From Promethearchaeota archaeon (GTDB lineage Archaea > Asgardarchaeota > Lokiarchaeia > Sigyniarchaeales > SOKP01), in NCBI GenBank assembly GCA_019894975.1, contig JAGXNO010000003.1, positions 1 to 64,000 of the forward strand: a stretch of 64,000 nt of DNA, written 5' to 3'. Under the pieces are notes generated by a model. It was not told the origin of the DNA. It did no database searches and worked only from the letters and a program-made list of their open reading frames with translations. Positions 17,335 to 38,868 of the stretch are shown here, piece after piece. A program made the position numbers and the translations under genes. Within the stretch, counting starts at the first letter, position 1. Each line of letters opens with the position of its first letter.

Positions 17335-17946
17335 TTGATCATGAAAACTATATTGTTTGATGCTTTAGGGGATAAGAATTTTTCCGTATATTCAATTAGA
17401 GATTTGGATGCTGAAGTTAAGGATGAGGATATTGAAGAATTGATTGGAAAAATTAAGCATATACCTGTACATTTTGCTACAATAGATTTAGGATATATAA
17501 AATTAAGAGAATTTAATCAAACTCATTTAGCAAAAGTATTAAAAAACTTCGAAATACCTATTTTTACAATAGAATTACCACACTATGTAAAAGGACATTA
17601 TGCAAGTCAAATTAGTGAGATTCAGAATAAGTACAATGAATTAAATACTACATATAATTCATTAAAAGATAAAAATTCTCCAGGTGCTCATGAGTTAAGT
17701 TATTTGATTGATTATTACTCAAAAGAACTAATGGAATTAAATGATTATCTAAATCAACAGATACGAACTAAATCAATTGTTGAGAAAATTTTAAGCGTAA
17801 TAAAAGATCGAGATAGTAAAAATTTAACTTTTGTACATTTTGGTAAGGAGAACACTTTTGTTGAAATAATGAAACAATTGAAAGAACGAAACGTAAAATC
17901 TAATATAATCTTCATTCAAAAGTCAAAATTTTTGCATTCTATATAA
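17335..17946 (+). CDS. Uncharacterised protein, paralog of 36551..37204 and of the N-terminus of 37192..38868
   Basis: Shared FATIDL, IP..I(E/N).P.Y..G, KIL..I and TFVHF blocks. Confidence 0.7.
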   Translation: MIMKTILFDALGDKNFSVYSIRDLDAEVKDEDIEELIGKIKHIPVHFATIDLGYIKLREFNQTHLAKVLKNFEIPIFTIELPHYVKGHYASQISEIQNKYNELNTTYNSLKDKNSPGAHELSYLIDYYSKELMELNDYLNQQIRTKSIVEKILSVIKDRDSKNLTFVHFGKENTFVEIMKQLKERNVKSNIIFIQKSKFLHSI

Positions 17947-20048: not shown

Positions 20049-21164
20049 TTATTTCTTGTTTTTTAAAGAAATTAATTTATAATACCAATCTAATTTCTTA
20101 TTCTCCCACTCAATAGTGTTATTAAATGGAACAATAAATTGCTCAATTATACCTTTTGAAAGCATATTATTTATTACTTTTTCACCATTATCATTTCTAA
20201 TTAATATCATCGAATATCCTTCTGGAGCTCCAGATGCTCCAACGCTAATATCTGTAAATCTTCCTGTGAATTCATCACACTCATGGCAACTATTTCTAAT
20301 TGCAGGATCTAAAGTTTTGATATCGATTTCAAATTTTCTATTATCTCTGGTTTGGATAAAGAAATTCTTTTTTATCCATGTTTTCTTGATTTTAGTAGGA
20401 CCAACTTTGGTTTCTCTCTTTAAAATATCATACAATTGATCATAGATAAAATTCTTAAAACAGAAAAGACCTATAATGTATTTAATTACATGAGCTGGTT
20501 TAACATGCAAAAATTTCATTTTATTAACAGCCCTACATTGGCAAGGAGTTCCAATAAATGCCATTCTTAGCTGGTCAATATCAAATATCTCCTTTTTCAT
20601 AAGAATCTCTTGCGATATTTCGTATAATTTTTTTAAAGGGAATATTTGAGAAGAAATAGAATAGCGTGTACCTGCTGATTTAAATAAATCTTCTTTGTCA
20701 AATATAATTTTTGGAACAGGTTCAAAATTATGGTCAAATTCTGAAACAATAGCTGCATCAATTTTATGTTTTTCAAATAAATGTGTTAGAATTGCTGAAA
20801 CTACCCCTCCATCTTGTCCAACTTTTTCTAATGCCGAGTTTGTTGTTTTAGCAGCAAGAATTTTAACGATATGTCCAATATTATTTTCAATACAATAAGT
20901 ATCATTTAATTCTTTTAATAATGTTTTAGTTTGAGGACAAATGTAATAACAAACGCCACATTTAGTACAATTATCAACACTTTTTTCCGATTTAAAACCA
21001 GGAATATATCCATTCATCTCAATAACATTAAAACCTTGACATTCGCAATATGCTATGCAAGCTCCACAGGCACAGCATTTATTACTTTTAATTATTTCAT
21101 TTTGAAGATCTTCAAATGTTTTTACTTCATTTTGCAAAAGTTTCTGAGAATCTGATTCAGTCAA
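20049..21164 (-). CDS. FrhB/FdhB family (F420-binding beta subunit) with N-terminal ferredoxin
   Basis: CCACGACIAYC, GQDGGVVSAIL, AGTRYS, GTPCQ, IGLFC, DISVG. Confidence 0.9.
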   Translation of the reverse strand: MTESDSQKLLQNEVKTFEDLQNEIIKSNKCCACGACIAYCECQGFNVIEMNGYIPGFKSEKSVDNCTKCGVCYYICPQTKTLLKELNDTYCIENNIGHIVKILAAKTTNSALEKVGQDGGVVSAILTHLFEKHKIDAAIVSEFDHNFEPVPKIIFDKEDLFKSAGTRYSISSQIFPLKKLYEISQEILMKKEIFDIDQLRMAFIGTPCQCRAVNKMKFLHVKPAHVIKYIIGLFCFKNFIYDQLYDILKRETKVGPTKIKKTWIKKNFFIQTRDNRKFEIDIKTLDPAIRNSCHECDEFTGRFTDISVGASGAPEGYSMILIRNDNGEKVINNMLSKGIIEQFIVPFNNTIEWENKKLDWYYKLISLKNKK

Positions 21165-21179
21165 TATAATTCTCTCTTT

Positions 21180-21686
21180 TTATTTCTTTTTACAATTATA
21201 TTCTAATTCAAATATTCCAAATTTTTTAGGGATTTTTAATTCTCCAAATCCTTTAATTTTCTTTGTAAAATCTTTAATTAACTCTGAAAATTGTTTTCCC
21301 TCACTTGCTGAAATTGAGTGTAATTGAAATCGATCTGCTTCTATCCCAATATATTTTATTAAATTCTTTAAATGATCCATTCTTACTTGAGTATATTCGA
21401 ATCCTTTCATATAATGACAATCACCCATATGGCATCCAATAATTATTACTCCATCTATTCCATTATTAAAAGCTCGTAGAACAAATGTTGGATCAACCCT
21501 GCTAGAACACATTACCCTAATAATCCTAATATTCGGGGGATACTGGAATCTAGAAACACCTGCTAAGTCTGCACCCGCATAACTACACCAATTACAGCAA
21601 AAAACTAAAATAATTGGTTCAAATTCACTTATTATCTTTTTTTTTATTTTTAACAGTACTGATCCCCCCAAATTAGATAATTTCAT
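21180..21686 (-). CDS. mvhD: Hydrogenase iron-sulfur subunit MvhD (Cys form)
   Basis: FCCNWCSYAGADLAG, RVMCSSRVDP, GCHMGDCHY; true start probably a few codons downstream. Confidence 0.93.
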   Translation of the reverse strand: MKLSNLGGSVLLKIKKKIISEFEPIILVFCCNWCSYAGADLAGVSRFQYPPNIRIIRVMCSSRVDPTFVLRAFNNGIDGVIIIGCHMGDCHYMKGFEYTQVRMDHLKNLIKYIGIEADRFQLHSISASEGKQFSELIKDFTKKIKGFGELKIPKKFGIFELEYNCKKK

Positions 21687-24600
21687 AATTCATTATATTT
21701 AAGTTTGGTAATAAATCAATCATTTTGCAAATTTGAAATTTACTAAAATGATTTTGATCAATAGCCCCAACTGAGCATTCAACAACGCAAGCCCCACAAC
21801 CTTTACAAAGAGCATTAATTACACGAGTCTTTCTCAAAGATGTATTATATAAACCCATTTCTTTATAAAATTCAATCAATTCAATAGCATTATAAGGGCA
21901 AATCTCAATACATTTACCGCATCCTATACATTTTTCTTCATTTATATAAGAAGTTATACATGCAGTTTCTATTTCCCCTTTAACCATTATTATTGTCGCT
22001 CTTCCCGCGGCACCATAAGCTTGAGTGATACTTTCACCTATCCATTTCGGCCAATGAGCTCCTCCACATAGGAAAATTCCTTCTGTTGCAAAATCAATTG
22101 GTCTAAGTTTTGTATCAGCTTCTAAGAAAAAGCCATCTGTATTTGTTGATACTTTTAACAATTTTGCTAATTTCTCGGTATCATCAGTAGGGACTTTAGG
22201 AGTAGCTAATATTAATAAATCAGTATTATATTCTATATTTGTTTGGGCACCAACATTCTTATATACGATATGGAAATTATCATTTTCACCACTGATTTTG
22301 ATATCATCAATTGAACGGTATCTTTCATAAGTAACTTTTTTTCGAAGCCTTCGCCATAGATTTTCAGCATTTAAATCTGAGAATTGAAACTCTCTATATA
22401 AAATATGGATATGTGCATTAGAGTTTATATTTAATAATTTTTCAATATTCTTTAATGCTACGCCACAACAGATATTTGAGCAATAAGCTTTTATATTATC
22501 TCCCCTATTAAATTCGTTTCTTCTTTGATCTACGCATAGTATTATTGTAGCATCTTTAAATTCAGGAATATTTGCATCTTTCATCCCAGTTAATTCTGTT
22601 TGTGTAAGTATACGTTTAGGATATCTTTCCGATAATTCTACCCACCTGTTTGTTTTTATTTGCTTAGTTCCCGTAGCCACTATTATTGTACCCACATTGA
22701 ACATTTTATTTTTTGAATTATCATGAGTATTTTTAACTTTAACTTGGTAATTTCCAATATAACCTTGAATATCATCTATATCTGAATTTAATAATATATG
22801 AACATTGGATTTGTTTTTCAAATCTCTAATTTCCTGTAAAATTTCATTTTTCGTAATAGGTATATAATATAAATCAATAAATTCGAGTGCAACGCCTCCA
22901 AGAAAAGATTTCTTATCTACAAGATAAATCTCAAATCCTTGATTTGCCAAATTATGTGCAGCAGATATTCCTGCTATTCCACCACCGATTATTAGAGTTG
23001 ACTTTTCAACTTTTACTTTAATGCTTTCTAAAGGTTTTAAATTAATTACTTTTGCCAAATACATTCTTATTAAATCACATGCTTTTTCAGTAGCCTTTTT
23101 AGGTTCATTTTGATGAACCCAAGAATCTTGGTTTCTTATGTTTACTAGTTCAAATAAAAATGGATTTAATCCAGCTTCTCTTAGAGTATTTTTAAAAAGC
23201 TGTTCATGAGTTCGCGGGGTACAAGAAGCAACTATAAATCTGTTAAGATTATATTTTTTGATTAGTTCTTTAATCCGTTCTTGGGAATCAGAACTACACG
23301 AATACATGTTTTCTTCAACGTGGGCAACATAAGGCAATTTAGAAACATAATCTACTACTTCGGAAACATTAACAATACCTCCGATATTAATACCACACTG
23401 ACAAACTAAAATACCTACACGAGGTTCATCCTCCGGTTTTACTGGTATTTCTGGAGGATATTTGTATTTTTTTATATTTTGAAATCTAACAGAATATAAT
23501 TTTTCGCTAATTTTAGCAGCACATGCAGAACCTTCAGTAACTGCCATTTGAATATCATTGGGTTTTCTAGAATAACCAGTTACGAATATGTTCTTTTTTT
23601 CAAGTAAGATTATATCTGTTTCACTAATATAACCTAAATTGCTACAACCCACATTAAGTTGTCTTAAAAGTTCATAATAAGAGGGAGTTGGAGATAATGC
23701 ACTAGCTAATATGGCCATATCCACTTCAAAAGTTCCAACTTTTCCTTTATCAATATCTTCGTAAAATAATTTTAATTTTCCGTTATCTAAATTTTCTTTG
23801 ATAAATGAAACATGACCATTCACATATTTAACATTATATTCATTCTTACTTTTTTCAATAAATTCATAGAAGTTTTTACCTTTAGCTCTGATTTCTGTAT
23901 TAAAAATATAACAATCAATACTAGGATCATGTTCTTTAACAACAATTGCTTCTTTAGCTGAATTCATACAACATATGGCAGAACAATATTTTTTACATTC
24001 TGGATGATGAACGTCTCGAGACCCAACACATTGTATAAAAGCAATTGAATGAGGATGTTTTTTATCCTCTAATCTTATGATTTGACCACCAGTAGGTCCA
24101 TTTGCAGATAAAAGACGTTCAAATTGCATACTAGACAAAACATTAGGAGAAGAGCCAGCAAAAGAATCATATACATCCGGCATTTTTTGGTTATATCCTG
24201 TAGAAATAACAATAGCCCCTACTTTTAAATTAATTTCTTCTGGTTTTTGTAAAAAATCTATTGCTTCTTCATTACAGGCTTCAGCACAAAGTCCACATAT
24301 CCTATAATTAAAAGATAAACATTTTGATTCATCAATGAGATATATAGGGGGTACTGATGATGGAAAAGGCATATATATGGCGCCTCGAGTTTTTAAATAA
24401 GCATCAAATTCGCTAGGAATTCCTCTAACTGGACAAATCTCGCCACAATCTCCACATCCTTTACAGAGGTCTTCTTTTATATATCTTGGCTTTCTTATAA
24501 TTGATATTGTGTAATCACCAGCAGATCCTCTAATATTTTTAACATAAGAATAAGTTAATAACTCAATATTTGGATTTCTATATATATCAACCATTTTTGG

Positions 24601-24786
24601 AGCTAAGATGCATAAACTACAATCAAGGGTGGGATATATTTTGTCTAATTGAGCCATAGTACCCCCAATAGTTGGTTTAATTTCGACTAAATATACCTTA
24701 AAACCTAACTTAGTTAGATCTAAGGATGCCTGTATCCCTGAGATTCCTCCTCCAATAACCAAAACACTACTCTGCAAATTTGACAT
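21673..24786 (-). CDS. hdrA: Large HdrA-family protein (tandem HdrA modules)
   Basis: GGGISG, MAQLDKIYPTLDCSLCILAP, QCVGSR..YCSAICC, CQCGINI, ASCTPRTH, second GGGIAG, C-terminal ferredoxin. Confidence 0.92.
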   Translation of the reverse strand: MSNLQSSVLVIGGGISGIQASLDLTKLGFKVYLVEIKPTIGGTMAQLDKIYPTLDCSLCILAPKMVDIYRNPNIELLTYSYVKNIRGSAGDYTISIIRKPRYIKEDLCKGCGDCGEICPVRGIPSEFDAYLKTRGAIYMPFPSSVPPIYLIDESKCLSFNYRICGLCAEACNEEAIDFLQKPEEINLKVGAIVISTGYNQKMPDVYDSFAGSSPNVLSSMQFERLLSANGPTGGQIIRLEDKKHPHSIAFIQCVGSRDVHHPECKKYCSAICCMNSAKEAIVVKEHDPSIDCYIFNTEIRAKGKNFYEFIEKSKNEYNVKYVNGHVSFIKENLDNGKLKLFYEDIDKGKVGTFEVDMAILASALSPTPSYYELLRQLNVGCSNLGYISETDIILLEKKNIFVTGYSRKPNDIQMAVTEGSACAAKISEKLYSVRFQNIKKYKYPPEIPVKPEDEPRVGILVCQCGINIGGIVNVSEVVDYVSKLPYVAHVEENMYSCSSDSQERIKELIKKYNLNRFIVASCTPRTHEQLFKNTLREAGLNPFLFELVNIRNQDSWVHQNEPKKATEKACDLIRMYLAKVINLKPLESIKVKVEKSTLIIGGGIAGISAAHNLANQGFEIYLVDKKSFLGGVALEFIDLYYIPITKNEILQEIRDLKNKSNVHILLNSDIDDIQGYIGNYQVKVKNTHDNSKNKMFNVGTIIVATGTKQIKTNRWVELSERYPKRILTQTELTGMKDANIPEFKDATIILCVDQRRNEFNRGDNIKAYCSNICCGVALKNIEKLLNINSNAHIHILYREFQFSDLNAENLWRRLRKKVTYERYRSIDDIKISGENDNFHIVYKNVGAQTNIEYNTDLLILATPKVPTDDTEKLAKLLKVSTNTDGFFLEADTKLRPIDFATEGIFLCGGAHWPKWIGESITQAYGAAGRATIIMVKGEIETACITSYINEEKCIGCGKCIEICPYNAIELIEFYKEMGLYNTSLRKTRVINALCKGCGACVVECSVGAIDQNHFSKFQICKMIDLLPNLNIMNYEII

Positions 24787-24843
24787 TTATCACTGCTATT
24801 GAAAAAATTTATTAACTTTATATCTCAATTTTGTAAGATGAAT

Positions 24844-26073
24844 TTAAAAAAGCATTAGCAATTTTCCAATAAAACTTGCTAAATCTACGACTTTTATTTT
24901 ATTTCTCAATTCATTATTCTCTTTATTTAAAGAAGACTCACTTATATAACAATTGAAGTGTGTTAGACATTTAGGGCAAGTAACAATTAAATAATCTGCT
25001 CCAGTATTAGCTGCTTCATTAATACGATTTTGCCTTAAAAAATGTGTGAATTCATTACAATTTGTAAATGTCGAAACACCACAACAACTAGCGTCATCTT
25101 TTATGTTTTCCATTTCAATCAATTCTACTCCTGGGATTTGTTTGATTAATTCTCTTGGGGAATTATATAGTTTTCCCCCTAAACGCCCTATTCGACAAGA
25201 ATCGTGATACGTTACCTTAATTTTAGAATTGTAAGGAAATTTAACATGGTCAAGTATTTTTTCCTTTAGAAAAAATTCAGAAAAATGAAAAACTTTAAAA
25301 TCAAAACCATCTACTATTTTTGGATAATCATATTTCCATGTTCGATATCCTTCAGCACATCCAACTATTACAGTTTTTACACCTGCATTTTTGTAAAGCT
25401 GAGTATTATATTCAGCAAATTTTTTAAAAGTTTCAATATTGCCTTCACCCCATAAAATATCGTGTCCACAACATTTTTCATTTAATACTACGGGTACTAT
25501 ATTGGCTTCATTAAGTAAATCTATTATTGTAATAGGTATATTGGTATAATTAAGACCTAAATTATAAAAAATTTCTCCCATTAAAGGCAAACATCCAATA
25601 AAATAAGCAATTTCACCCGATTCTGCTATTTTTAATCCTTTTTCCTCTAAAAATTCTAATTTATTTGGATTTATAGCATCATTTGCCATCATTTTTGAAA
25701 TTAGTGGGAAGATTTCATTATGTGTTTCACATCTAGCAACCTTATCTAATTCTGAATTATTCTTACTTGAAATTTTTCTTAATTCTAAAATTAATTCAGG
25801 TATTCTTACACCATTATTCTCTTGAGTCATTGGACAATATATAGTACATTGACCACATGTAAGACAGTTCCATATATTATGATTATTTAAAACCTCTCCT
25901 AATGAAGAAAAGATTAGATCTCCTATCAATAATCGTGGAAAAAATATGTCTAAATGCGAAAGTGGACACACATTTACACATCGATTGCAAGCATAACAAT
26001 AATTTGCCATTGAAATTACATTTTCAATTATTCCTCCTGAATTAAGACTATTTGATGCATCAATAGATTTCAT
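24844..26073 (-). CDS. HdrD/GlpC-like Fe-S oxidoreductase (ferredoxin + CCG domains)
   Basis: CYACNRCVNVCP, CLTCGQC..CP, EKCCG, CAEGY, YHDSC, SCCG, TCPKC. Confidence 0.9.
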   Translation of the reverse strand: MKSIDASNSLNSGGIIENVISMANYCYACNRCVNVCPLSHLDIFFPRLLIGDLIFSSLGEVLNNHNIWNCLTCGQCTIYCPMTQENNGVRIPELILELRKISSKNNSELDKVARCETHNEIFPLISKMMANDAINPNKLEFLEEKGLKIAESGEIAYFIGCLPLMGEIFYNLGLNYTNIPITIIDLLNEANIVPVVLNEKCCGHDILWGEGNIETFKKFAEYNTQLYKNAGVKTVIVGCAEGYRTWKYDYPKIVDGFDFKVFHFSEFFLKEKILDHVKFPYNSKIKVTYHDSCRIGRLGGKLYNSPRELIKQIPGVELIEMENIKDDASCCGVSTFTNCNEFTHFLRQNRINEAANTGADYLIVTCPKCLTHFNCYISESSLNKENNELRNKIKVVDLASFIGKLLMLF

Positions 26074-26291: not shown

Positions 26292-26623
26292 CTTTCAATT
26301 TACTAATGTGTTAAACTCAAAACTAGTATTGATATTTTATAATAAAAAGTATCGAAAAATATCAATCACCATGACAAGAATAGTAATCATAATATAAAAA
26401 TCTTCACTTTATATGCAGAGACTCAAACCTTTAAGATAGAGATTACTAAATCATCATTTCTAATATCGAATATTTTTGATTGATTAATAAATTAAACCTC
26501 CCATTATGGTAATGCAAATGATCAAAATAGGAAGTTTATTTCCTTATTTAAAAAATTTTTAATATTTTTTTTAATATATTGGAATATTCAATACACAAAA
26601 CTGACTAACATTTCTACAAAATT

Positions 26624-27771: not shown

Positions 27772-29085
27772 CTAATGCGCAACACAGGATAGGCAAGGGT
27801 CAAATGCTCTAATAACGGTCTGAATTTTTTTTTTAACTAAATTTAAATCTCCAGTTCTATTGTATAATTCTTGGGCATATTTTGTTATAATATCATTAAT
27901 TATTGGAATGTTAATTTCAGTAGGTATGAAGATTTTTGCTTTTTTAATCAAATTATTATCATTTACGTAATAATGATGTAGTAACATACCTCTTGGTGCT
28001 TCAATAACTCCTATCCCCTCCGAATTTTTCAAAGAGATAAGAGATGGGAGCATTGTTCTCCTATTTAACACAGGCTCTTCTAAAATTTTCAATCCCTGTT
28101 GAGCTTCAAAATACATTTCTAATAACCTAACAAAGTTAGCGAATAAAATGTTTTTTTGCCAAGATTTATCAAAATATTCAAGATAAGTATTGATTTTATC
28201 AAATTCATAATTTTCGGTAATTTTGTATCGGGAAATAGGACCAACTAAAAATCTTTTACTTTTATCAAAATGGAAATCAATCCCTCTTAAATTGATATCC
28301 TTTTCAAAATAGGAAGAATAGTTTTTTTCTTCGAATTCGATTGAATTTCTTTCATTTTCTTTAATTTTTAAGGTCCCCCTGTACCTATCAAAATTACCGA
28401 AGTTATTTAACCCCATATACATCACATTTGGGAGATCATATTCTTTGGGAGGAGCAAGATTGGAAAAAACATCAATAAATTTCTCAATTATCCATTCCAA
28501 TATGATTATAGCCTTTTGAAAATATTTTCGTGCTAGTGAAATATTTTTTCGAGCAGGTAAATAAATAATTCCTCCGGGAGTTGGGGTAATCAAATGAACA
28601 GATCGTCCGCCAAAAATTCTTTCGATCTCGTTGCCTATTTTAATTAATTCATATACATTTGTCGTTAATTGAGAGTCATATCTGATCAGTTCGTACGGAG
28701 AGAATTGTTTTTGACTAACCTTAAAAATTTGAAAAAGATCCGGTAAGGATTGGAAGAAAAAATGCATAGAATGTGATTTAATTAATTCTCCAAACAATAA
28801 TAAATACCTTAAAAGAATAGATTGTTCTGGTACAGCTATTTCAAACAAATTTTCTATTGCTTTACAGCTAGCAATTGTTTGAGAAGCATAACATAAACCA
28901 CATATCCGAGATACAATTTTAGGAATGTCGGTTAGTTTTTTTCCAATTAAAAAGCTTTCAAATCCTCGATTTGATCCAATTTCGAAATTAACATTCGAGA
29001 TTTCATCGTTCTGAACTAAAATCTTTACAGTCCCGTGGCCCTCAACTCGAGTACATACATCCACTATTTTTAACAGTATGATCAC
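27772..29085 (-). CDS. mvhA: Group 3 [NiFe]-hydrogenase large subunit (MvhA-like)
   Basis: TRVEGH, RGFE, RICGLC, EAPRGMLLHHY, AFDPCLSCVAH at the C-terminus. Confidence 0.9.
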   Translation of the reverse strand: MIILLKIVDVCTRVEGHGTVKILVQNDEISNVNFEIGSNRGFESFLIGKKLTDIPKIVSRICGLCYASQTIASCKAIENLFEIAVPEQSILLRYLLLFGELIKSHSMHFFFQSLPDLFQIFKVSQKQFSPYELIRYDSQLTTNVYELIKIGNEIERIFGGRSVHLITPTPGGIIYLPARKNISLARKYFQKAIIILEWIIEKFIDVFSNLAPPKEYDLPNVMYMGLNNFGNFDRYRGTLKIKENERNSIEFEEKNYSSYFEKDINLRGIDFHFDKSKRFLVGPISRYKITENYEFDKINTYLEYFDKSWQKNILFANFVRLLEMYFEAQQGLKILEEPVLNRRTMLPSLISLKNSEGIGVIEAPRGMLLHHYYVNDNNLIKKAKIFIPTEINIPIINDIITKYAQELYNRTGDLNLVKKKIQTVIRAFDPCLSCVAH

Positions 29086-29840
29086 CTTCTTAATTTTGGT
29101 CTTGAAAAACGATAAAATATTCCTTCATAATTTTTTAAGTCCTTAGAAAGACTAACCAAACTTAAAAAATTAATGATATTTGATGTAAAATCTTTTGAAA
29201 CAGGACCCATACAACCTTCACATGGAAGTCCTAGTTTTATACATTTATTCTCGCATCCTTCTCGAGTTATCGGTCCCAAACATAGAATACCTTTTTTCAA
29301 AAAACAACCTGAATTTTCTTCACCAAGAACAATTTCATCAGGATTAGGATGCATTTTAATTATATCTGTATTTAAATTTTTCTCCATATTTTCTCTTAGA
29401 GGACAACTAGCACACATAACTTTTTCAGATAGGCTTGTATCTTTATTTTCAATTAATCTAATTAAAATATTTCCAAATAGTTTTGAGGGAGGAGGACATC
29501 CGGGAATAATTCCGTCAATTTCAATACAAGTTGAGATTGGTTTTATATCTCTTGAATTCGAAAGGCTTAAAATCCCTCCAAAAGCTGCACATGTTCCAAG
29601 GGCATACACTTTTTTAGCATGTTTCCTAACTTCTTTGAGGAGACCGATTTCCGAATCTTCAGAAATACAGCCTTCTACTAAAACAATATCACAATCTTCA
29701 ATTTTTTCTATATCTGAGATAAATGGAAAATGAATTATTTTAGTTCTTTCAAGGAATTGAGGAAAAATATCTAAGGAGATTAATGTTGAGATACAACCGC
29801 TGCACGATGTTAAAGAAATTATAATAACTCTAGGCTTCAT
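29082..29840 (-). CDS. mvhG: [NiFe]-hydrogenase small subunit (MvhG-like)
   Basis: SCSGC, VEG, LGTCAAFGG, PGCPP, CASC, CLGPITREGC..C...CEGC. Confidence 0.9.
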   Translation of the reverse strand: MKPRVIIISLTSCSGCISTLISLDIFPQFLERTKIIHFPFISDIEKIEDCDIVLVEGCISEDSEIGLLKEVRKHAKKVYALGTCAAFGGILSLSNSRDIKPISTCIEIDGIIPGCPPPSKLFGNILIRLIENKDTSLSEKVMCASCPLRENMEKNLNTDIIKMHPNPDEIVLGEENSGCFLKKGILCLGPITREGCENKCIKLGLPCEGCMGPVSKDFTSNIINFLSLVSLSKDLKNYEGIFYRFSRPKLRR

Positions 29841-32379
29841 ATTTGATCTCCTCCATCAATTGGTAATAGAATTTATTAACAATTTCAGCAAATTTACTGC
29901 CCTCAACAGCATTCATATGCTCAAGAATAACACGATTACTGTATTTTGGGCCCAAAATATTTTTTAATAATTTGATTTTATTATTAATTTTTTCTACTCC
30001 ATCAATGTATCGACATGCGTTCTCATTGCATCCAATAACCATAACTCCGTCAAATCCACGCTCAAGTGATTTGATTATAAAATTTGTATCAACACGACCA
30101 GTACATGGAACTCGCACAATGAAAATATTTGGATTATACGAAATTTTTTTAAGACCAGCATCATCAGCTGCTGCATATCCACAAGAACCACAACAAAACG
30201 CGATAATTTTCGGACTTTTCTTATACTTTGAAAGCACTTCAATTGTCTTAAGAAACTTTTCAGAAGTGTCTATATTTAAATCTATTGCATTTGTAGGACA
30301 AACACTTACACATGTTCCGCATCCTTTACATTTGAATTTATCAATGCTAATTTTGTCAGATTCGATAGTTATTGCATTATATGGACAAGTTTTAGAACAT
30401 AAACCACATAAGCCACATTTTTCCTCATTTATTTCTATTCCACTAAACTCTGCTATTAAGTAATCCTGTGAAAGTAATGAAATCACTTTTAAAGCGATAT
30501 TATTAGCTGTAGAAATTGTGGAATTATAATCTAAAGGGCCAAAAATAGTACCAACTCCATATATTCCTGAAGCTAAGGTTTCTTCACTCATAAAGCCATA
30601 ATCATCCAAAGAAAAATCCATAGTCTTTCTAAATGCTTTTAGATCTTTATTTGGAACTATTGCTAGATTTAATATAATCAAATCGCTTGGATATTCCACT
30701 GAATCAGCAATAATCCGCTTTTCATTATTATCGTCAACAATTTTTATCTCATTAGCATAATGGAATCGGGAGTCTCTTGAACTAAGTAAAAAATCATTTT
30801 TGTTATTAATTTTATTTAAATCATAAAAAACATTTACGGTGCAACCAGGATTTTTTACATTTATACAACTTAGATATTTTAAAGCAAGAGTGTCATGAAG
30901 TTTATGTTGATGATCAGGGGAACCTGCGCATTGAATAATTGCAATTCTCTTTGCTGGTTTTTTATCAGAAATTTTTATTATTTCCCCACCTGTGAAACCA
31001 TCTGAAGAAAGCATTCTTTCAAATTCAGGGGACGTAATTATGTCATTTTGTGGATCATAATTATATTGCTCCAAATCCGAGTATAAATCAGCACCAATTG
31101 CAATGACTTTTACACCAACTTTGATCCTAATTTTCTCTTGTTTTTGATCAAGAGCAATTGCTTTATTTATACAAGCACGTTCGCAAATTCTACAATTAAG
31201 ACAATTATTTATATCTTCCATATCGATTAAAGGAACATAAGGATATGAATGAATAAATGGGATGTATATAATTTTACTATTAATTAAACCAAATTCGTAC
31301 TGATTGGATTTTTCTATACTACATACATCTATGCATTGTTTACACCCAGTGCATTTTTTCTCATCAACATAACGAGGTTTTTTAATTAAATCAATTGTAA
31401 AATCACCAACCTCTCCTGATACACTCTCGATTTCGGTATTAGTAAAAATGTTTATATTTTTTTCTTTCACTAATTCAGCTATCAATTCAGAAATGAAACA
31501 AATAGAACAATCGCCCATTTTATAGATTCGATCCCACCTAGCTACCTTTCCTCCGAGGGTTGGTGATTTTTCAACAAGAAATACTTTAATTCCCGCTCGT
31601 GCTAAATTTAATGAGAGCGTCATACCTGCAATTCCACCACCTATGATTGCACAACTCTTTTCTATTTCAACTCTCTTAATTTTTACGTTCTTCTGAAGAA
31701 TTACCCTTTCAATGGCAACTTCAATTAATAATTTTGCTTTTTCTAAAGTTAGTGTAGGATCTATATTATCCACTTTAAATTGATGCACCCAACAGCATTG
31801 CTCTCTAATATTTGCTATTTCTATGTTTGCGCGTTCAATAACATCCTCAAAAATGCGTTCAAAAATATGTTGATGTGTCTTTGGGGAACATGCGGCAATA
31901 GCAACTTTGTTTAAGAAATTATCTTTAACCCATTTGGCAATCTTAATAAAATTTTTTTGCTGACATAGATTTTCAAATACCTTGACAGAAACAACATATT
32001 TTAACTTACTTACGTAGTTTTCCAGAGCATTTACATTTATAATATTTGAAATTTCTGTATTACAATTACAAATAATAACCCCAACTCGACTTATTTCACT
32101 TCCCTTTGAATCTAAATACTCGTCAATATCTTCTCCTGATAAAATCCTTTTATTAATATTTAATATCTTAAGGACTCGCTTTCCTTCTTCTGTAAGAAAA
32201 TATGATTTCTTATCTTTATCTATTAAGGATCCAATTTTTTTGAGATGGAAGTTTAACTGACCAGTTGTTTCTAAACCAAGTCTTTCCATTAAATCTGTAT
32301 ACGGAAGATAACCCTCATTTTCTAGAAGGAGTAATACCTTTCTTCTAAATGGATGAGATAATATTGAATATATATCCAT
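29830..32379 (-). CDS. Winged-helix (ArsR-like) / HdrA-like / MvhD triple fusion
   Basis: N-term LSHPFRRKVL...TGQLNFHLKKI..YFLTEEG; HdrA blocks AACSPKTH, NIREQCCWVH, GGGIAG; C-term FCCGSCGYAAAD, VPCTGRVD, GC...CRY. Confidence 0.85.
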   Translation of the reverse strand: MDIYSILSHPFRRKVLLLLENEGYLPYTDLMERLGLETTGQLNFHLKKIGSLIDKDKKSYFLTEEGKRVLKILNINKRILSGEDIDEYLDSKGSEISRVGVIICNCNTEISNIINVNALENYVSKLKYVVSVKVFENLCQQKNFIKIAKWVKDNFLNKVAIAACSPKTHQHIFERIFEDVIERANIEIANIREQCCWVHQFKVDNIDPTLTLEKAKLLIEVAIERVILQKNVKIKRVEIEKSCAIIGGGIAGMTLSLNLARAGIKVFLVEKSPTLGGKVARWDRIYKMGDCSICFISELIAELVKEKNINIFTNTEIESVSGEVGDFTIDLIKKPRYVDEKKCTGCKQCIDVCSIEKSNQYEFGLINSKIIYIPFIHSYPYVPLIDMEDINNCLNCRICERACINKAIALDQKQEKIRIKVGVKVIAIGADLYSDLEQYNYDPQNDIITSPEFERMLSSDGFTGGEIIKISDKKPAKRIAIIQCAGSPDHQHKLHDTLALKYLSCINVKNPGCTVNVFYDLNKINNKNDFLLSSRDSRFHYANEIKIVDDNNEKRIIADSVEYPSDLIILNLAIVPNKDLKAFRKTMDFSLDDYGFMSEETLASGIYGVGTIFGPLDYNSTISTANNIALKVISLLSQDYLIAEFSGIEINEEKCGLCGLCSKTCPYNAITIESDKISIDKFKCKGCGTCVSVCPTNAIDLNIDTSEKFLKTIEVLSKYKKSPKIIAFCCGSCGYAAADDAGLKKISYNPNIFIVRVPCTGRVDTNFIIKSLERGFDGVMVIGCNENACRYIDGVEKINNKIKLLKNILGPKYSNRVILEHMNAVEGSKFAEIVNKFYYQLMEEIKYEA

Positions 32380-32480: not shown

Positions 32481-33638
32481 TTAATCGTCGTCAATTTCTA
32501 AAGCTAAAGGTGGAGATTTCCATGTAATCAATTTATTTTTCATAAAGTTTTCAAATCGTTCCATCTTTAATTGACAGAATTGAGAAATTTTCTCTTTCAT
32601 TTTCTCTTTGCTTGTTACCTCCAATCTAAAAGATTTAATTACTCCTGCATTAATTACTTTCCTAATTATATCTATTCCTTTTTTAGTGCGAGTGATTACT
32701 GTAGTAAATTTATCCGTAGAACCTAATCCCCCAAATGAGATATCAGCATAAATACTAGTGAAATCGCTACAAGCAAGACAAGCTTGACGCATATAATCAT
32801 TTATACTTTCAAAGGGGATATGGATTATTTTTTGAGTGGCTCCTCTGTTTTTCAATTTAATGATTAAATCTTCTTTAATGTTTATTCTTTCTACATTTTC
32901 GAATTTCAGATTGAATTCTTTTTCAAACTTCTCAATTCTGAGCTTATCAAAAAAGAAGTTCTCGTAACAAAATAATCCTAAACAAAGCTCAATATTCTCT
33001 GAAGGAATAATACCTAAACTTTGCATGCATCTAATAGTATAAATTTGGCACGGTGTTCCAACCACAGCTAATCTTTTAAATTTGTAATCTCTTAATTGGG
33101 GAAGTGAACTTGTATATGTGTGAAATTTCTGTAATTCATTTAGCTGTGGAGATAAATCTAATTTAAGTCCTGATGCCTCTATTAAATCTTTTTTATTTCT
33201 AGCAATTGTGGCTTCTCTGGAAAAGGCAGTTTTTGTTTTTGCAACGATAGCCCCATCAATTACTTTCTTCTCTAATAAATAGTTTATTATTGAGTTTACT
33301 ACACCTCCATCTGTTCCAATTTTTAAAAAATCTTTATCTGTGGCTTGACATGAATAAATATTGTCGATAAATCCAAAGGGCATGGATGAAAAACTTGTAA
33401 AATTATAAGTTTTCTTGAGATCACCGTCTAAAATATGAGTCTGTGGGCAAAGTAAATAACAAATTCCGCATTCAAGACATTTATCCTCATTTATATATTT
33501 TGGAGGTGAATTAGGATCCTTCATGCTAATTACATCATGTTCAATCGAATTACAAAAACTTACACAACCTCCACATTGTTGGCATATACCAGGTTCGTGA
33601 ACTTCTTTAATTAAATCCTTAAAATTCTTTATCTTCAT
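32481..33638 (-). CDS. FrhB/FdhB family protein, paralog of 20049..21164
   Basis: CQQCGGCVSFC, TDGGVV, VGTPCQ, LGLFCYENF, ADISFGG. Confidence 0.9.
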   Translation of the reverse strand: MKIKNFKDLIKEVHEPGICQQCGGCVSFCNSIEHDVISMKDPNSPPKYINEDKCLECGICYLLCPQTHILDGDLKKTYNFTSFSSMPFGFIDNIYSCQATDKDFLKIGTDGGVVNSIINYLLEKKVIDGAIVAKTKTAFSREATIARNKKDLIEASGLKLDLSPQLNELQKFHTYTSSLPQLRDYKFKRLAVVGTPCQIYTIRCMQSLGIIPSENIELCLGLFCYENFFFDKLRIEKFEKEFNLKFENVERINIKEDLIIKLKNRGATQKIIHIPFESINDYMRQACLACSDFTSIYADISFGGLGSTDKFTTVITRTKKGIDIIRKVINAGVIKSFRLEVTSKEKMKEKISQFCQLKMERFENFMKNKLITWKSPPLALEIDDD

Positions 33639-34054
33639 TATCAGAAATCACCAACTGTATTTATAATCTCGACATCCTAATGACTATTTTAGTAAATATT
33701 ATGATTACTATGATAAATATTATTGTCAAAATATATAAATATATCTTTTTTCGTATATTGATAAGTGAAAAACCTCAATTGAATATTAGAGAATGATAAG
33801 GAGTATATTGAATTTGGATCAGGGATAGGTCCGATTCGTTCATCAAATAAAAAATTGATAAGCAGATTTATCAAAATAACAAATATTTTTCTTATCAGAT
33901 TTTTTAAATTTCTCTCACCTCATAATTTTATCGTAATAGAGTATTAGAAAGTGATTATTATTTCATTTTTGGAAATTCAGTATTTTTTTCAAAATTGAAA
34001 ATAAAAAATTTTTATTAAAAAAATAACGGGTGATATTTTACAAAGGTGGATTAG

Positions 34055-36091
34055 ATGTCTGAAGTGCAGACCAATGTTAGAATAGGAGTGTATATCTGTA
34101 GATGAGGAGTAAATATTGGTGCAAGCATTGATTGCGATATTCTGAGAAATTATGCGGAACTACTCACGGGTGTCATGATTGCTAGAGTAAATGATTTTAC
34201 TTGCAGTGATCCAGGACAAACACTTATTAAGAATGATATTTTAGACTTAGATTTAAATCGGATTGTCGTTGCTGCTTGTACACCAAAAATTCATGAATCC
34301 ACCTACCGAGCAGTATTAATTGAAGCAGGATTAAGTCCATACTATTTTCAAATGGTTAATCTACGCGAGCATTGCTCTTTTATTCACTTAAATGATAAAA
34401 AGAATGCTACTGAAAAAGCTCTAAGATTACTACAAGCAGGAATAAATCGTGCACGGGAATTAGAAATTATCCCTTATAAAAAAATATCGATGGAAAGAGC
34501 TGTTTTAATTATTGGAGCGGGAATTGCGGGGATGAATGCTGCTTTAGATTTAGCAAATCAGGGGATTCCTGTTTATTTAGTCGAAAAAGAAGCCACAATT
34601 GGTGGAAAAATGGCACAATTAGACAGAATTTACCCCACCGATGATTGTGGGATATGAGTACTCGCACCTATTATGGTGAGTGCTTCAAAGCACCCAAATA
34701 TAAAATTATTTACCTATAGTGAAATTATTGAATTTAATGGGATCCCTGGTAATTATAATGTCAAAATACGAAGAAATCCTCGTTATATTAATGAAAAGAA
34801 ATGTACTGGTTGCGGGTTATGTACAATAAAATGCCCAATAAAAGTCCCGAATGAATTTAATAGAGGTATTGGAGAAAGGAGCGCAATTTACATACTTTTT
34901 CCCCAAGCGGTTCCAAAAATTGCTTTAATTGATAGAGATGTCTGTATAGAATGTAAAAATTGTCAAAAAGACTGTCCAGCAGAAGCTATTGAATTTGAAC
35001 AAGAACCTGAGTTTATCGATTTAACAGTTGGAGCAATCATTGTTGCTACTGGATGGGATGAATATCCAATTATGAAATATAACGATTATAAATATGGTAT
35101 TTATCCTAATGTAATTACACAACTAGAGTTAGAACGAATTTTAAGTCCAATTGGACCAACAGGGGGTCATCTTTATAGAATCTCTGATGGTAAAACCCCA
35201 AGAACAGTAGCTATGATTCAATGTGTTGGCTCGAGATCCTTAAAGGGGAACCCTTATTGTTCTGTAGTTTGTTGCAGTGTTGCTCTTAAAAACGCTCAAC
35301 TGCTAAAACAAGAATATCCGGGTATGGATATTGTTATTTTTTATATAGATGTTCGAGCATGGGATAAAGGGAATGAAGAATATTATAGAAAAGCAAGAGA
35401 AGCAGGTATAATGATGGTTCGGGGAAAAGTAGGAGATATACGAGAAGATCCTGAAACAAAAAAGCTAAAGATTCGAGCTTCTTCAACTTTAACTGGTGAA
35501 TTTATTACCTTGAACGCAGATTTAGTCGTTTTATCAACAGGTATGGTCCCTTCTAAAAATACAGCAAAAATCATTGATATTTTAGGATTAAATAAGGATT
35601 CGAATGGTTTTTTAAAAGAGATTCATGGATGCCTCAAACCTCAAGAGACAAATAATATGGGTATTTATATATGTGGATGTGCCGCTGGACCTAAAAATAT
35701 CCCTTATTCCGTATCAACAGCCTTAGCTGCAGCAAGTAAGGTATCAACATTACTTTCTAAAGATACAATAATTCAAGAATTAATTATTGCTGAAATAGAT
35801 GAAAATCTGTGCATGGGTTGTCATAGATGTGAAAAACTCTGTAATTATAAAGCAATCACAGTAAATGGAGAAAATTTTGCGGAAGTAGATGATTTAAAGT
35901 GTAGAGGTTGTGGCGTTTGTGTTTCATCATGTCCCGCTCGAGCAATCGATCTCAAATATTATAGAGAAAAACAATTTGTCGAAGAAATAAAAGGGATTTG
36001 TAGTACTGAAATTGAATTTAAGGAGGAATATTTTGAATCTATTGAAATCGTAATGAAAGAGATTGAAGCATTAGCTCCTCATAAAATTTAA
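34055..36091 (+). CDS. hdrA: Heterodisulfide reductase subunit A, probable selenoprotein (two in-frame UGA; 678 aa)
   Basis: ATG 34055 behind AGGTGG. MSEVQTNVRIGVYICR-TGA(34103)-GVNIG and PTDDCGI-TGA(34655)-VLAP both align with HdrA Cys positions; track ORFs 34175 and 34673 are in the same frame. Confidence 0.92.
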
Positions 36092-36161: not shown

Positions 36162-36445
36162 AATAATAATTTATCTTAGATTTAGAGTTTTGATGTATAG
36201 AAAATTTTTTCTAATTTTAGCATTTTGATACTAAGTTTAAATTATGATTAATATATAACTTCCCTTATAGGCAATTTAAGGGATTTCTAATTTCCTATTA
36301 TAAGTGTCATTTAATTATTATATTTTTTTATTTTTTTGTTAAAAAAATTGACAATTTTTTTTTTCATATCATATCTATTAATATGCTAGAAATGTGATTT
36401 TTAACTTTATACTGCCATAAAAGAAAAATTCACTAAAGTTATAGA

Positions 36446-36465
36446 TTGACAATAAAGTTTGTCAA
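36446..36465. promoter_or_regulatory. Inverted repeat TTGACAA-N6-TTGTCAA, operator candidate
   Basis: Perfect 7-bp inverted repeat ~90 bp upstream of the 36551 operon. Confidence 0.35.
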
Positions 36466-36550: not shown

Positions 36551-37204
36551 GTGAGAATTAAGATGGAAGTTTTGGAAATTAAACCTGTTAGGAATAAAGA
36601 AATTAGAGTATATCTGATAAAAATATCTAATAGAAAATCAAAACCTAATGCAAAGGTAAATTTAATTGAGTTTTTAAGTCGTATAAATGTTAATTTTGCC
36701 ACAATTGATTTAGAAAACGAGAATCTAAGAAGTTTTAATAAGTCATCCTTAGCAAAAACATTGGAACAATATAATATTCCTTATTACATAGTAAATATCC
36801 CTGAATATGCGATGGGTTATCTTATGACGGAAATAATAGAAAAAGTAGAACAAGTTGACGAATTAATAGAAGAATTTCTTAGTATGAGCAATAAAGAATC
36901 CATTAAAGGGCTGAATTTAAAATCTTGGATTGATTTTCTCAAAGAAGAGATCGATGAAAAGAAATTATTTTTAGAATTAAAGCTAAGACCAGAATGGGTT
37001 GTTAAGAAAATTCTAGATATAATAAGACCTAAAAATAATAATGAAATCACCTTCGTCCATTTTGCTCAGGATAAGATATTTAATGAAACAATGAAGCTAT
37101 TAAAAGATTTATCTATAGAAGTTAAAGTTTATGAGCAAAAAAAAGAACCTTTTATTGTACATTTAATTACAAATGAGGAGGAATTAGACCAATGGAAGTA
37201 TTAG
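36551..37204 (+). CDS. Uncharacterised protein (family shared with 17335 and the 37192 N-domain)
   Basis: MEVLEIKP..., FATIDL, IPYYIVNIPEYAMGYL, RPEWVVKKIL, TFVHF. Confidence 0.75.
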   Translation: MRIKMEVLEIKPVRNKEIRVYLIKISNRKSKPNAKVNLIEFLSRINVNFATIDLENENLRSFNKSSLAKTLEQYNIPYYIVNIPEYAMGYLMTEIIEKVEQVDELIEEFLSMSNKESIKGLNLKSWIDFLKEEIDEKKLFLELKLRPEWVVKKILDIIRPKNNNEITFVHFAQDKIFNETMKLLKDLSIEVKVYEQKKEPFIVHLITNEEELDQWKY

Positions 37205-38868
37205 AATTGAAACCATTAAAGAAAAAAAGTTTAAAACTGGTGTTGATAGAAAGTGAATTTCCAATAGAATGGTGGTTTGAGGTATCGGCACAAAAGAAAC
37301 ACGATTTAGTTTGGAATTTAAATCTAGTTTCGAGGGAGTATCTTAATCTAATTGAAGATCTTATAAAAAAACACAATCCAAATTTCGCTATTGAGGAAAA
37401 GGGGAGTCGTTGGGAGGATACGATATCCCATGAAGATCCTATTGAGATATTATTTAGAGAACACGAGATTCCCTACAAAATGGTTGATATTTCAGAGAAC
37501 GCTGAAGATTATCTCTCTTCAAACTTGGAGGATCTAAGAACTTTTATAAAACAGTTAACAAAATCGATTAAAAGTTCAAAAAAGGTTGAGGGTTATAAGG
37601 ATGATTATATGTTTCTACGACAATTATTATGGAAGGATTATCTACAACAAGAATATGATAGTCAAGAAGATGAAATAAGGTATAAAGTTCGAGAAGCTTG
37701 GATGATGATGGGGATTCTTAAAATAGCAAAAAATTTGGAAGATAAAAAGCTAAACGCATTCTTTATCTGTGATTCTAATCATTTCAAAGGTATTACTCAA
37801 TTAGCTGAAGAGTTGGCTATAGAAACTGAAGAAATAAAAGTTAAACGATCAATTAAAATTATAAATAATCCTGGCTCAGGATCGATTAAAAATATAATTG
37901 GAAAATCTATACTTGAATTAACACCAATTAAAGTAAAAAAAAAGGAAAAACTTGATAAAATCTGTTATTTTTTTGATACAGACGAAAATGCTTCTCCTTT
38001 TGATATAAATATGGCTTATGACGCAGGCTTTGACGTGGTGATCCCATTTAGCAACATAAAAGCAAATCAGGTACAAAAATTAGTCCAAGATGCTATTTTT
38101 TCACGTAAACCAGGGGCACCTACATCATTTTTTATTGGGGGATCGAATGTGAAAGAAGGTGCAAAAATAGTCACAAAAGTTATAAAATCATTAGTACCAC
38201 CCTTTGAATGTCCAATCATTATCGATCCTAGAGGATCGCACACAACGGCATCTTCGATTGTGGCAAAAACCATGGAGATAGCTGAAAACCATAATATTGA
38301 TGATTTGAGAGGAAAAAAGGTTGTAATTTTAGGAGCGGGCCCTGTAGCTCAGATCGCAGCGATATTATCTGCTAAATTAAAATGTGAAACATATTTGGTA
38401 GAGACTTGGAATAAATCAAATAAGGAGTTTATCGAAGAATTATCAAAAGAGTTATCTAAAGAAGCAGGAAATGCTGCTACAATAATTCATGGAGAATTTG
38501 CTATAACTGAGGAAGAAAAATACAGTATTTTAAAAGATGCAGATTTTATATGGTCTTTGGCTGCAGTAGGTATTCAAGTTTTATCGAAAGATTTAATGGT
38601 TAAGCTAAAAAATAAAATCGTATGTGATATTAATTTAGTTCCACCCTATGGAATTGATGGATTAAAACCAAAGGATTTTAATGCTGAAATATTTCCTAGT
38701 ATTTTTGGAACTGGAGCATTAGCCATTGGTCGTCTCAAATCCAAAGTTGAGGAAACAATTTTAAAGGAAGCTTCAGCTACCATTGGAAAGAAAACATTTG
38801 ATTATCGATATGCTTTTGAAACAGCGAAGAAGATTTTGTTTGGAAGTGAAATTAAAATTACTCTTTAA
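37192..38868 (+). CDS. NAD(P)-dependent methylene-H4MPT dehydrogenase (MtdA/MtdB-like) fused to a ~250-aa unknown N-terminal domain
   Basis: ASPFDINMAYDAG, VQDAIFSR, FIGG, DPRGSHTTA, GAGPVA, DINLVPPYGIDG, GALAIGRLK. Confidence 0.85.
   Translation: MEVLELKPLKKKSLKLVLIESEFPIEWWFEVSAQKKHDLVWNLNLVSREYLNLIEDLIKKHNPNFAIEEKGSRWEDTISHEDPIEILFREHEIPYKMVDISENAEDYLSSNLEDLRTFIKQLTKSIKSSKKVEGYKDDYMFLRQLLWKDYLQQEYDSQEDEIRYKVREAWMMMGILKIAKNLEDKKLNAFFICDSNHFKGITQLAEELAIETEEIKVKRSIKIINNPGSGSIKNIIGKSILELTPIKVKKKEKLDKICYFFDTDENASPFDINMAYDAGFDVVIPFSNIKANQVQKLVQDAIFSRKPGAPTSFFIGGSNVKEGAKIVTKVIKSLVPPFECPIIIDPRGSHTTASSIVAKTMEIAENHNIDDLRGKKVVILGAGPVAQIAAILSAKLKCETYLVETWNKSNKEFIEELSKELSKEAGNAATIIHGEFAITEEEKYSILKDADFIWSLAAVGIQVLSKDLMVKLKNKIVCDINLVPPYGIDGLKPKDFNAEIFPSIFGTGALAIGRLKSKVEETILKEASATIGKKTFDYRYAFETAKKILFGSEIKITL

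Follow-up and report, generated by a model that had tools for sequence, protein, structure and literature searches.

A winged-helix HdrA-MvhD fusion and a conserved palindrome at an Asgard [NiFe] hydrogenase locus

Architecture and conservation of the fusion gene

The DNA analysed here (the window) comprises the first 64,000 nucleotides of contig JAGXNO010000003.1, from a Promethearchaeota archaeon (GenBank assembly GCA_019894975.1). On its minus strand, at 29830-32379, a single open reading frame (ORF) of 849 amino acids, with an ATG start and without internal stop, encodes a protein (P0001) in which a winged helix-turn-helix (wHTH) domain precedes HdrA and MvhD. The genes of a [NiFe] hydrogenase follow on the same strand. 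The features of this operon are as follows.

29830..32379, minus strand: wHTH-HdrA-MvhD fusion gene, from the ORF, Pfam, NCBIfam, alignments to Protein Data Bank (PDB) structures and homologs
32095..32379, minus strand: ArsR-type wHTH (residues 1-80) with a conserved tether (81-95), from DUF7347, 1Y0U, AlphaFold2 (AF2) and Foldseek
30235..32088, minus strand: HdrA body (residues 98-715) with N-terminal [4Fe-4S], flavin adenine dinucleotide (FAD) motif GGGIAG, inserted 2x[4Fe-4S] and C-terminal 2x[4Fe-4S], from alignment to 8RVU and 5ODC
30865..30933, minus strand: site of the lost HA4 cluster motif (residues 483-505, QCAGSPDHQHKLHDTLALKYLSC), from alignment to solved HdrA and to homologs
29857..30207, minus strand: MvhD/FlpD domain (residues 725-841) with its Cys ligands, from Pfam FlpD, PDB MvhD and Cys conservation
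29082..29840, minus strand: mvhG-like hydrogenase small subunit (PF01058, NCBIfam)
27772..29085, minus strand: mvhA-like [NiFe] large subunit (PF00374, NCBIfam), terminating at DPCLSCVAH without C-terminal extension
32481..33638, minus strand: FrhB-like subunit with N-terminal 2x[4Fe-4S], first gene of the operon in this clade (Pfam, NCBIfam)

Residues 95-715 of P0001 align end to end with methanogen HdrA structures (8RVU, E 4e-112; 5ODC, E 2e-104) and residues 722-841 match solved MvhD (E ~5e-23). Pfam finds FAD/NAD Rossmann signatures from residue 243, ferredoxin-type 4Fe-4S domains at 341-405 and 648-700, and FlpD (PF02662) at 725-841 (E 1e-34, 119.7 bits against a cut-off of 22.3). The top NCBIfam model is HdrA2 (NF040770, E 1e-171); the score lies far under the equivalog cut-off (572 against 1100 bits), as do those for the other HdrA/HdrA2 models (420 against 1300 and 370 against 1400 bits). 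An initial annotation, made from the sequence alone, had described a wHTH, HdrA blocks and a complete MvhD in one gene overlapping mvhG. Each of these items proved correct, the overlap being 11 nt (29830-29840).

The annotation had also called the N-terminal ~80 residues ArsR-like, and this domain is a genuine wHTH. Residues 2-71 match DUF7347 (E 4e-10, 40.2 bits against a cut-off of 27.6), and a profile of the domain retrieves the A. fulgidus ArsR-type repressor 1Y0U (E 8e-7). The AF2 predicted local distance difference test (pLDDT) is 87 for whole P0001 and 86 for residues 1-97, and the two models agree; it falls below 50 in segment 86-94, between the wHTH and the HdrA body. The wHTH model contains helices at 10-22, 27-34 and 39-52, the last being the recognition helix (TGQLNFHLKK), a beta-hairpin wing at 53-62 and a dimer helix at 64-80. 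Searching with this model, Foldseek returned ArsR/HxlR/MarR winged-helix regulators for all of its top 50 matches (template modelling score up to 0.70). Residues T39, G40, N43 and H45 of the recognition helix are invariant across 36-93% identity, and residues 1-80 are basic (pI 9.5). A search for ArsR sensing sites in the wHTH sequence was negative: residues 1-97 are free of Cys, and helix 64-81 contains no His. With neither a Cys of its own nor a metal site in helix 5, any signal to this wHTH must originate in the attached body.

In the predicted homodimer, the wHTH domains pair via residues 2-13 and 68-92, which would leave the recognition helices free. The dimer score was 0.55, as compared to 0.01 for the best of three controls; runs shared at least 93% of contacts with pLDDT of at least 85. 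The mark used for this score was reached by 20 of 30 proteins solved as one-chain pairs and by 1 of 23 solved as single chains, and resemblance to solved ArsR dimers may account for the pass of the model. Among 121 aligned sequences, conservation is 0.84 for the wHTH and 0.73-0.88 for the catalytic domains. It amounts to 0.865 for the tether (residues 76-96); a place in the predicted dimer interface would explain why the tether is as conserved as the rest.

At least 120 homologs are found in metagenome-assembled genomes of Promethearchaeota. They are nearly all ~849 aa long, align over their full length at 66-93% identity and nearly all carry PF24038; their database name is just 'hydrogenase iron-sulfur subunit', a label that the wHTH-HdrA-MvhD assignment corrects. 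Clusters at 50% identity contain further fused forms at 35-41% identity, as well as unfused HdrA-MvhD relatives that begin at query residue 97-98. In a set of 400 Asgard genomes, residues 1-170 are matched in full within ~850-aa frames in families f1, f4, f5, f6, f19, f21, f28 and f31. The fusion thus spans 36-93% identity and at least eight Asgard families. In two single-contig genomes of family f3 (4.4 and 6.0 Mb), only residues ~91-170 are matched and the fusion is apparently absent.

The cofactor sites of the HdrA body and of MvhD are strictly kept, with one exception. G247, G249 and G252 of the FAD-binding GxGxxG motif, which lies in a thioredoxin-reductase-like core, are invariant in 66 diverse sequences. 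In the 121-sequence alignment, the 20 Cys of the N-terminal, inserted and C-terminal [4Fe-4S] sets, as aligned to 8RVU, are 99-100% conserved, and Cys 730, 733, 759, 784 and 789 of MvhD are 100% conserved. All Fe-S Cys outside HA4, including 104, 106, 139 and 164, those at 343-353, 393-403 and 655-694 and the MvhD set, show 97-100% conservation. HA4 itself is lost. The CxGSR...CSxxCC motif of solved HdrA (CVGSRDEQIGKPYCSRVCC) aligns to QCAGSPDHQHKLHDTLALKYLSC in P0001, with three of the four Cys missing; the stretch opposite the motif is CAGSPDHQHKLHDTLALKYLSC, and the replacement begins QCAGSPDHQHKLHDTL. The position of the fourth Cys (484) is occupied by C in just 33 of the 121 close homologs and is thus mostly non-Cys, so that the whole clade has lost the HA4 site. 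In the window, the two remaining HdrAs retain QCVGSR...YCSxxCC. The alignment thereby bears out the initial observation that this motif is replaced in P0001 and intact in its two neighbors. The description 'degenerate HdrA' holds for the single cluster HA4 and does not hold for the other five Fe-S sites or for the GxGxxG motif.

Families f19, f28 and f31 have retained HA4; f1, to which the window belongs, has lost it, as have f4, f5, f6 and f21. Loss of the cluster therefore characterizes the fusion in this clade, where it marks a Loki-type subclade, but not in distant fused members that have HA4 together with the wHTH and the palindrome described below. Since these distant families still have HA4, the wHTH fusion seems to predate the loss of the cluster, or at any rate to be independent of it. 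In HdrA, HA4 relays the high-potential electron that leaves FAD in the direction of HdrBC, and a mobile arm is made up of the N and C domains (PMC12350162). From this published account, HA4 is the sole cluster of the flavin core. The conservation of all remaining cofactor sites indicates that P0001 is not a decaying protein, but rather an HdrA that gave up its HdrBC-facing exit. This fits with the operon: hdrBC genes were searched in the operons of ~100 loci and none was found in any, an HdrD-like gene being nearby in some. Without HA4, the exit of electrons would be limited to the ferredoxin-type clusters, the flavin site or the FrhB-like partner.

The genes mvhG and then mvhA lie downstream of the fusion in every related locus with a long enough contig; in the window they overlap each other by 4 nt. 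The large subunit contains the Ni-Fe ligand motifs RICGLC and DPCLSCVAH, and the subunits adjoin MvhD, as in a group 3c Mvh-type module. Their top NCBIfam models are VhuG, VhuA and sulfhydrogenase, each under its cut-off. MvhA ends at DPCxxCxxH in 68 of 68 loci of family f1, in which HA4 loss also occurs; the distant fused families add 6-13 residues. The FrhB-like gene stands 101 nt upstream of the fusion on the same strand, and is upstream in only ~30 of 80 close loci. Both the MvhD fusion and the translational coupling suggest that P0001 may dock on the hydrogenase. A membrane histidine kinase gene (26624-27700, minus strand), without nearby response regulator, lies directly 3′ of mvhA; this position is kept in 2 of 77 loci.

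A palindrome at the operon promoter

The upstream regions of 26 loci with the fusion gene first in the operon were aligned. These promoters share conserved TTGAYAA...TTRTCAA repeats, one of them right behind a TATA-like box. The resulting palindrome is GAYAA-N6-TTRTC, extended in this clade to TTGAYAA-N6-TTRTCAA and adjoining the TATA box of the operon. This motif, new in the present analysis, is rare and confined almost entirely to this gene cluster. The sites of the window, and the neighboring genes that they precede, are listed below; scores are those of a position weight matrix (PWM) built solely from sites of other species and run on the 3.9-Mb genome.

33710..33729, unstranded: predicted proximal operator TTGACAATAATATTTATCAT (read on the minus strand), one mismatch, best PWM score of the genome (27.0)
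33855..33874, unstranded: predicted distal operator TTGATAAGCAGATTTATCAA, in the divergent intergenic region shared with Sec-hdrA, exact, second PWM score of the genome (20.0)
36446..36465, unstranded: predicted operator TTGACAATAAAGTTTGTCAA, 86-105 nt upstream of the ~210-aa-family and Mtd genes, exact, among the best 13 PWM matches
36348-36367, unstranded: weaker site near the same genes, among the best 13 PWM matches
26371..26390, unstranded: candidate operator ATGACAAGAATAGTAATCAT, ~300 nt upstream of the HdrD-like/long-HdrA/MvhD/FrhB operon, third PWM score of the genome (18.8)
34055..36091, plus strand: divergent HdrA with two in-frame TGA at Cys positions, a probable selenoprotein (Sec-HdrA), from the sequence
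36551..38868, plus strand: gene of an unknown ~210-aa family, then the same domain fused to methylene-tetrahydromethanopterin (H4MPT) dehydrogenase (Mtd), from sequence and co-occurrence
20049..26073, minus strand: operon of an HdrD-like protein (CCG), a 1037-aa double-flavin HdrA-like protein, a free MvhD and FrhB, from the sequence and the PWM site upstream

The spacing of the half-sites is strict. In 77 close loci (849 kb), the N6 spacer gave 120 matches at no more than one mismatch, 33 of them exact, as compared to 2-4 (0-1 exact) for spacers of 4, 5, 7 and 8, a 30- to 60-fold enrichment. A site lies upstream of the operon in 64 of the 77 loci. Nearly all matches are upstream of the fusion gene, most of them in the promoter region of whichever gene comes first in the operon; only two are downstream. 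Distant families show the same preference: across 22 of their loci (174 kb, GC content up to 0.62), 29 exact cores have the N6 spacer, against 0-6 for any other spacer. These sites nearly always flank the operon, either 46-580 nt before the fusion gene or just 3′ of mvhA, ahead of the gene that comes next. From centre to centre, the half-sites are 11 bp apart, one DNA turn, a spacing that fits a wHTH dimer.

The palindrome is also specific to the locus. Only two exact 20-nt matches exist in the whole genome, at 33855-33874 and 36446-36465. The three best PWM positions genome-wide are 33706, 33851 and 26367, and positions 36442 and 36344 are among the best 13, so that 5 of the 13 best matches fall in this ~10-kb redox locus. 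Those comparably scored sites elsewhere that were checked lie mostly inside genes. One-mismatch matches at spacer 6 number 22 in the genome, which is not above other spacers (11-21). At that scale, therefore, just exact, PWM-ranked and intergenic matches are informative. In genus g58, an 18-nt palindrome stands ~95 nt before the gene in three genomes with the fusion, as the sole or one of two genome-wide matches, and is absent from two genomes without the fusion. When the exact 20-nt pattern was searched in five other genomes, its sole genome-wide match in G003 was at the locus. Because this exact form is too strict elsewhere, counts with at most one mismatch, the PWM and the 16-nt core were used.

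In the window, the divergent promoter region at 33640-34050, which the initial annotation had singled out for binding assays, contains this conserved, locus-specific palindrome, as a DNA-binding regulator from the same locus would require. The proximal site starts 2 nt after the TATA-like TTTATATA (33739-33732), 72-91 nt before the ATG of the FrhB-like gene, and its end is close to the expected transcription start.

Sec-hdrA, on the other side of the divergent region, is a probable member of the palindrome regulon. Its TGA codons 17 (ICR-TGA-G, a Cys ligand of the N-terminal cluster) and 201 (DDCGI-TGA-VLAP, the DCSxC position) split the gene into two ORFs; the protein retains QCVGSR...YCSVVCC. 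The ~210-aa-family gene and the Mtd fusion are probable members as well. This family, with a MEVLEIKP... start, has three plus-strand copies in the window, at 36551-37204, 37192-38868 (the Mtd fusion) and 17335-17946, and the copy at 17335 has no palindrome before it. The family is linked to the wHTH-HdrA-MvhD hydrogenase in all arrangements and families examined, is itself preceded by the palindrome, and was not found in five genomes without the fusion. Searches for a helix-turn-helix, Pfam or PDB match returned none, only a weak TraB/GumN likeness. The HdrD-like operon is a possible member.

Two observations were made elsewhere in the genome. On contig C93 (19076-24289, minus strand), a second hydrogenase-like cluster encodes an Lrp-like helix-turn-helix protein, a 442-aa small-subunit fusion, a 434-aa large subunit and HdrC-like and HdrB-like proteins. 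The large subunit ends before DPCxxC and is followed by a 279-nt gap, with room for a VhuU-type selenocysteine (Sec) peptide; this cluster is possibly the Sec-type partner of the Sec-HdrA of the window. On contig C107 (L003:5560-7548, minus strand), a second DUF7347 enzyme of 662 aa joins a wHTH to an NrdD-like body (anaerobic ribonucleotide reductase family). That fusion is conserved in at least 49 Promethearchaeota species (L106-L154). Searching 48 of these loci for a palindrome at their own promoter gave all-A/T palindromes only, no better than the coding control.

Possible roles of the winged helix

Apart from the P0001 wHTH, no DNA-binding domain could be recognised within 20-40 kb of the window, and no other accompanies the palindrome through every gene arrangement. 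The four recognition-helix residues are invariant over 36-93% identity, and so is the GAYAA core. This is strong circumstantial evidence that the P0001 wHTH binds the palindrome. The reading that we favor, at somewhat better than even odds, is that P0001 works as an electron-transfer subunit and, like PutA, also regulates its own operon. As compared to the initial proposal of a regulator, the wHTH, the conserved fusion and the palindrome support that part of the claim. The two findings that the annotation had named as refuting it, a fusion absent from all homologs and an N-terminal domain other than a wHTH, are both contradicted. A role as regulator only finds no support, and the strict purifying selection on all remaining cofactor sites suits a functional electron-transfer subunit.

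In such a scheme, P0001, which unites HdrA and MvhD in one chain, would be the flavin/Fe-S subunit of a cytoplasmic Mvh-type [NiFe] hydrogenase, its synthesis coupled to that of MvhG and MvhA. MvhA would split H2, and electrons would pass through MvhG to the fused MvhD and on to the flavin and clusters of HdrA. With the HdrBC route gone, they would leave via the ferredoxin-type domains or the FrhB-like partner. The wHTH, tethered by ~15 residues to the N-terminal domain of HdrA, would pair by its first and last helices, and the pair would bind GAYAA-N6-TTRTC palindromes. The proximal site spans the region from the TATA box to the expected start, so that its occupancy may block recruitment of RNA polymerase and hence cause repression. 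The other sites would act on Sec-hdrA, on the ~210-aa-family and Mtd genes and perhaps on the HdrD-like operon. A likely signal would be the redox state of the FAD and clusters, fed by H2 via MvhAG-MvhD. Alternatively, the swing of the N/C-terminal mobile arm of HdrA could serve as signal; either may alter the geometry or the availability of the wHTH. A bolder form, in which the whole hydrogenase complex is the transcription factor and the H2-reduced MvhD-HdrA chain moves or releases the wHTH pair from the operators, is put forward only tentatively. If true, an Asgard archaeon would read H2 at the promoter and need no kinase, second messenger or separate regulator. The same device would coordinate the genes of Hdr-like complexes, selenoprotein HdrA and methylene-H4MPT dehydrogenase.

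Several points weigh against an autoregulating subunit. The wHTH is tied to the palindrome by co-occurrence, and the ~210-aa family, which may be the binder instead, tracks the cluster as tightly. The recognition helix and the operator core are both nearly invariant, leaving no covariation to use. No strong palindrome was found at the fused loci L088, L100 and L001; it is weak in f28, and none at L002 is convincing. In solved Mvh-Hdr complexes such as 5ODC, the two hydrogenase arms are far apart, and two wHTHs of one complex might be unable to reach one palindrome. Finally, it would be unusual for a repressor to be a stoichiometric subunit of an enzyme that may be abundant.

The same operator evidence would equally serve a dedicated sensor, a reading that we consider unlikely. 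MvhAG with wHTH-HdrA-MvhD would then be a regulatory hydrogenase that reads H2 or the ferredoxin/flavin redox state and acts as transcription factor, a one-complex analogue of HoxBC-HoxJ-HoxA, and not a metabolic enzyme. In that case the Sec-type Vhu-like/HdrBC genes elsewhere in the genome, with the neighboring Sec-HdrA, would account for metabolic H2 turnover. Consistent with such a role, the HA4 exit is lost in this clade, the operon is without hdrBC, and contig C93 has HdrC- and HdrB-like genes in its hydrogenase-like cluster. Regulatory hydrogenases are without a cleavable large-subunit extension, and MvhA stops at DPCxxCxxH in all 68 close loci. However, the five other Fe-S sites are kept, including the inserted ferredoxin domain that in HdrA passes electrons to ferredoxin, and distant fused families with HA4 and short MvhA extensions still carry the wHTH and the palindrome. 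In ~30 loci the operon also encodes an FrhB-like redox partner, the best family matches of MvhA are group 3 and not group 2b, and only 2 of 77 loci retain the histidine kinase next to mvhA.

We give a slightly lower probability still to the possibility that the wHTH is a dimerisation or docking module, not DNA-binding in vivo, and that another factor, for example the ~210-aa protein, binds the palindrome. That family is cluster-linked everywhere, palindrome-preceded and not found in the five genomes without the fusion. Moreover, winged helices frequently mediate protein contacts in Asgard archaea and eukaryotes, and the tether is conserved as part of the predicted dimer interface. On the other hand, the family has no DNA-binding likeness, one of its copies is fused to Mtd and the copy at 17335 is without a palindrome, while the ArsR recognition-helix signature of P0001 is invariant over deep divergence on a basic surface and the 11-bp half-site spacing suits a wHTH dimer. 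The last alternative, that the wHTH is a separate small gene joined by chance fusion, assembly error or a wrong start call, can be dismissed as an artefact, since the frame is unbroken, the architecture recurs in over 120 independent assemblies and in eight families or more, and homologs share the MDIY... start (104 of 121 aligned sequences cover the N-terminus and 92 start with M).

Relation to known systems

The MvhAGD-HdrABC complex (PDB 5ODC, 8RVU, 7BKB; PMC12350162) shares with P0001 the domain order of HdrA, the FAD site, the N-terminal cluster, the ferredoxin domains, the [2Fe-2S] module of MvhD and the adjacent MvhG/MvhA. Here, in contrast, MvhD is fused to HdrA, HA4 is lost in the clade, the operon has no hdrBC, and a wHTH and a predicted operator are added. 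HdrA2 of Methanosarcina (NF040770), which works with HdrB2C2, also has HdrA and MvhD in a single chain. Relatives of the HdrA2 type are without wHTH, since their alignment starts only at query residue 97-98, and those aligned have kept the Cys motif of HA4. In Helarchaeota, a three-gene cluster was drawn as a 'possible energy-transferring complex' (Seitz et al. 2019, PMC6478937, Fig. 5). It was read there as a possibly membrane-linked redox complex, and the account of that figure mentions neither a DNA-binding domain nor an operator.

ArsR/SmtB repressors (1Y0U; NolR, CadC, BigR; the HxlR-type YodB) resemble the P0001 wHTH in fold, helix order and the HL signature of the recognition helix, and in the predicted dimer through first and last helices and the putative palindromic target. 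The P0001 wHTH differs in having no residues for the sensing of metals or thiols and in its fusion to a redox protein of 750 residues.

Current models of Asgard lifestyle and of the origin of the eukaryotic cell give hydrogen exchange a central place. To our knowledge, nothing is known of the regulation of Asgard hydrogenases, and our search of the literature found no description of a DNA-binding HdrA and none of enzyme-to-promoter wiring for any hydrogenase. What is defined at this locus is a domain (residues 1-97), a 20-bp predicted operator with strict spacing and a small predicted regulon that consists of the hydrogenase, Hdr-like complexes, the selenoprotein HdrA and the Mtd fusion. If the redox state of the flavin or Fe-S clusters controls DNA binding, this would make a direct enzyme-to-promoter link for H2 metabolism.

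Two known systems couple H2 or redox state to the transcription of hydrogenase genes. HoxBC with HoxJ/HoxA is the group 2b regulatory [NiFe] hydrogenase, and SurR of Pyrococcus furiosus is a redox-switched wHTH regulator of hydrogenase operons. The HoxBC large subunit is without C-terminal extension, as in this clade. However, sensor, kinase and regulator are separate in the HoxBC system, whereas here the DNA-binding domain sits in a hydrogenase-associated subunit. SurR uses an ArsR-like wHTH, but as a free regulator with a CxxC switch, whereas the P0001 wHTH has no Cys.

Among trigger enzymes, which also include BirA and NadR, PutA of E. coli and Salmonella offers the closest analogy. This flavoenzyme has a DNA-binding domain at its N-terminus and acts as repressor of the operon that encodes it; reduction of the flavin moves PutA off the DNA. 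PutA has a ribbon-helix-helix on a bacterial membrane-associating dehydrogenase, whereas P0001 has an ArsR-type wHTH on an archaeal hydrogenase-linked Fe-S flavoprotein.

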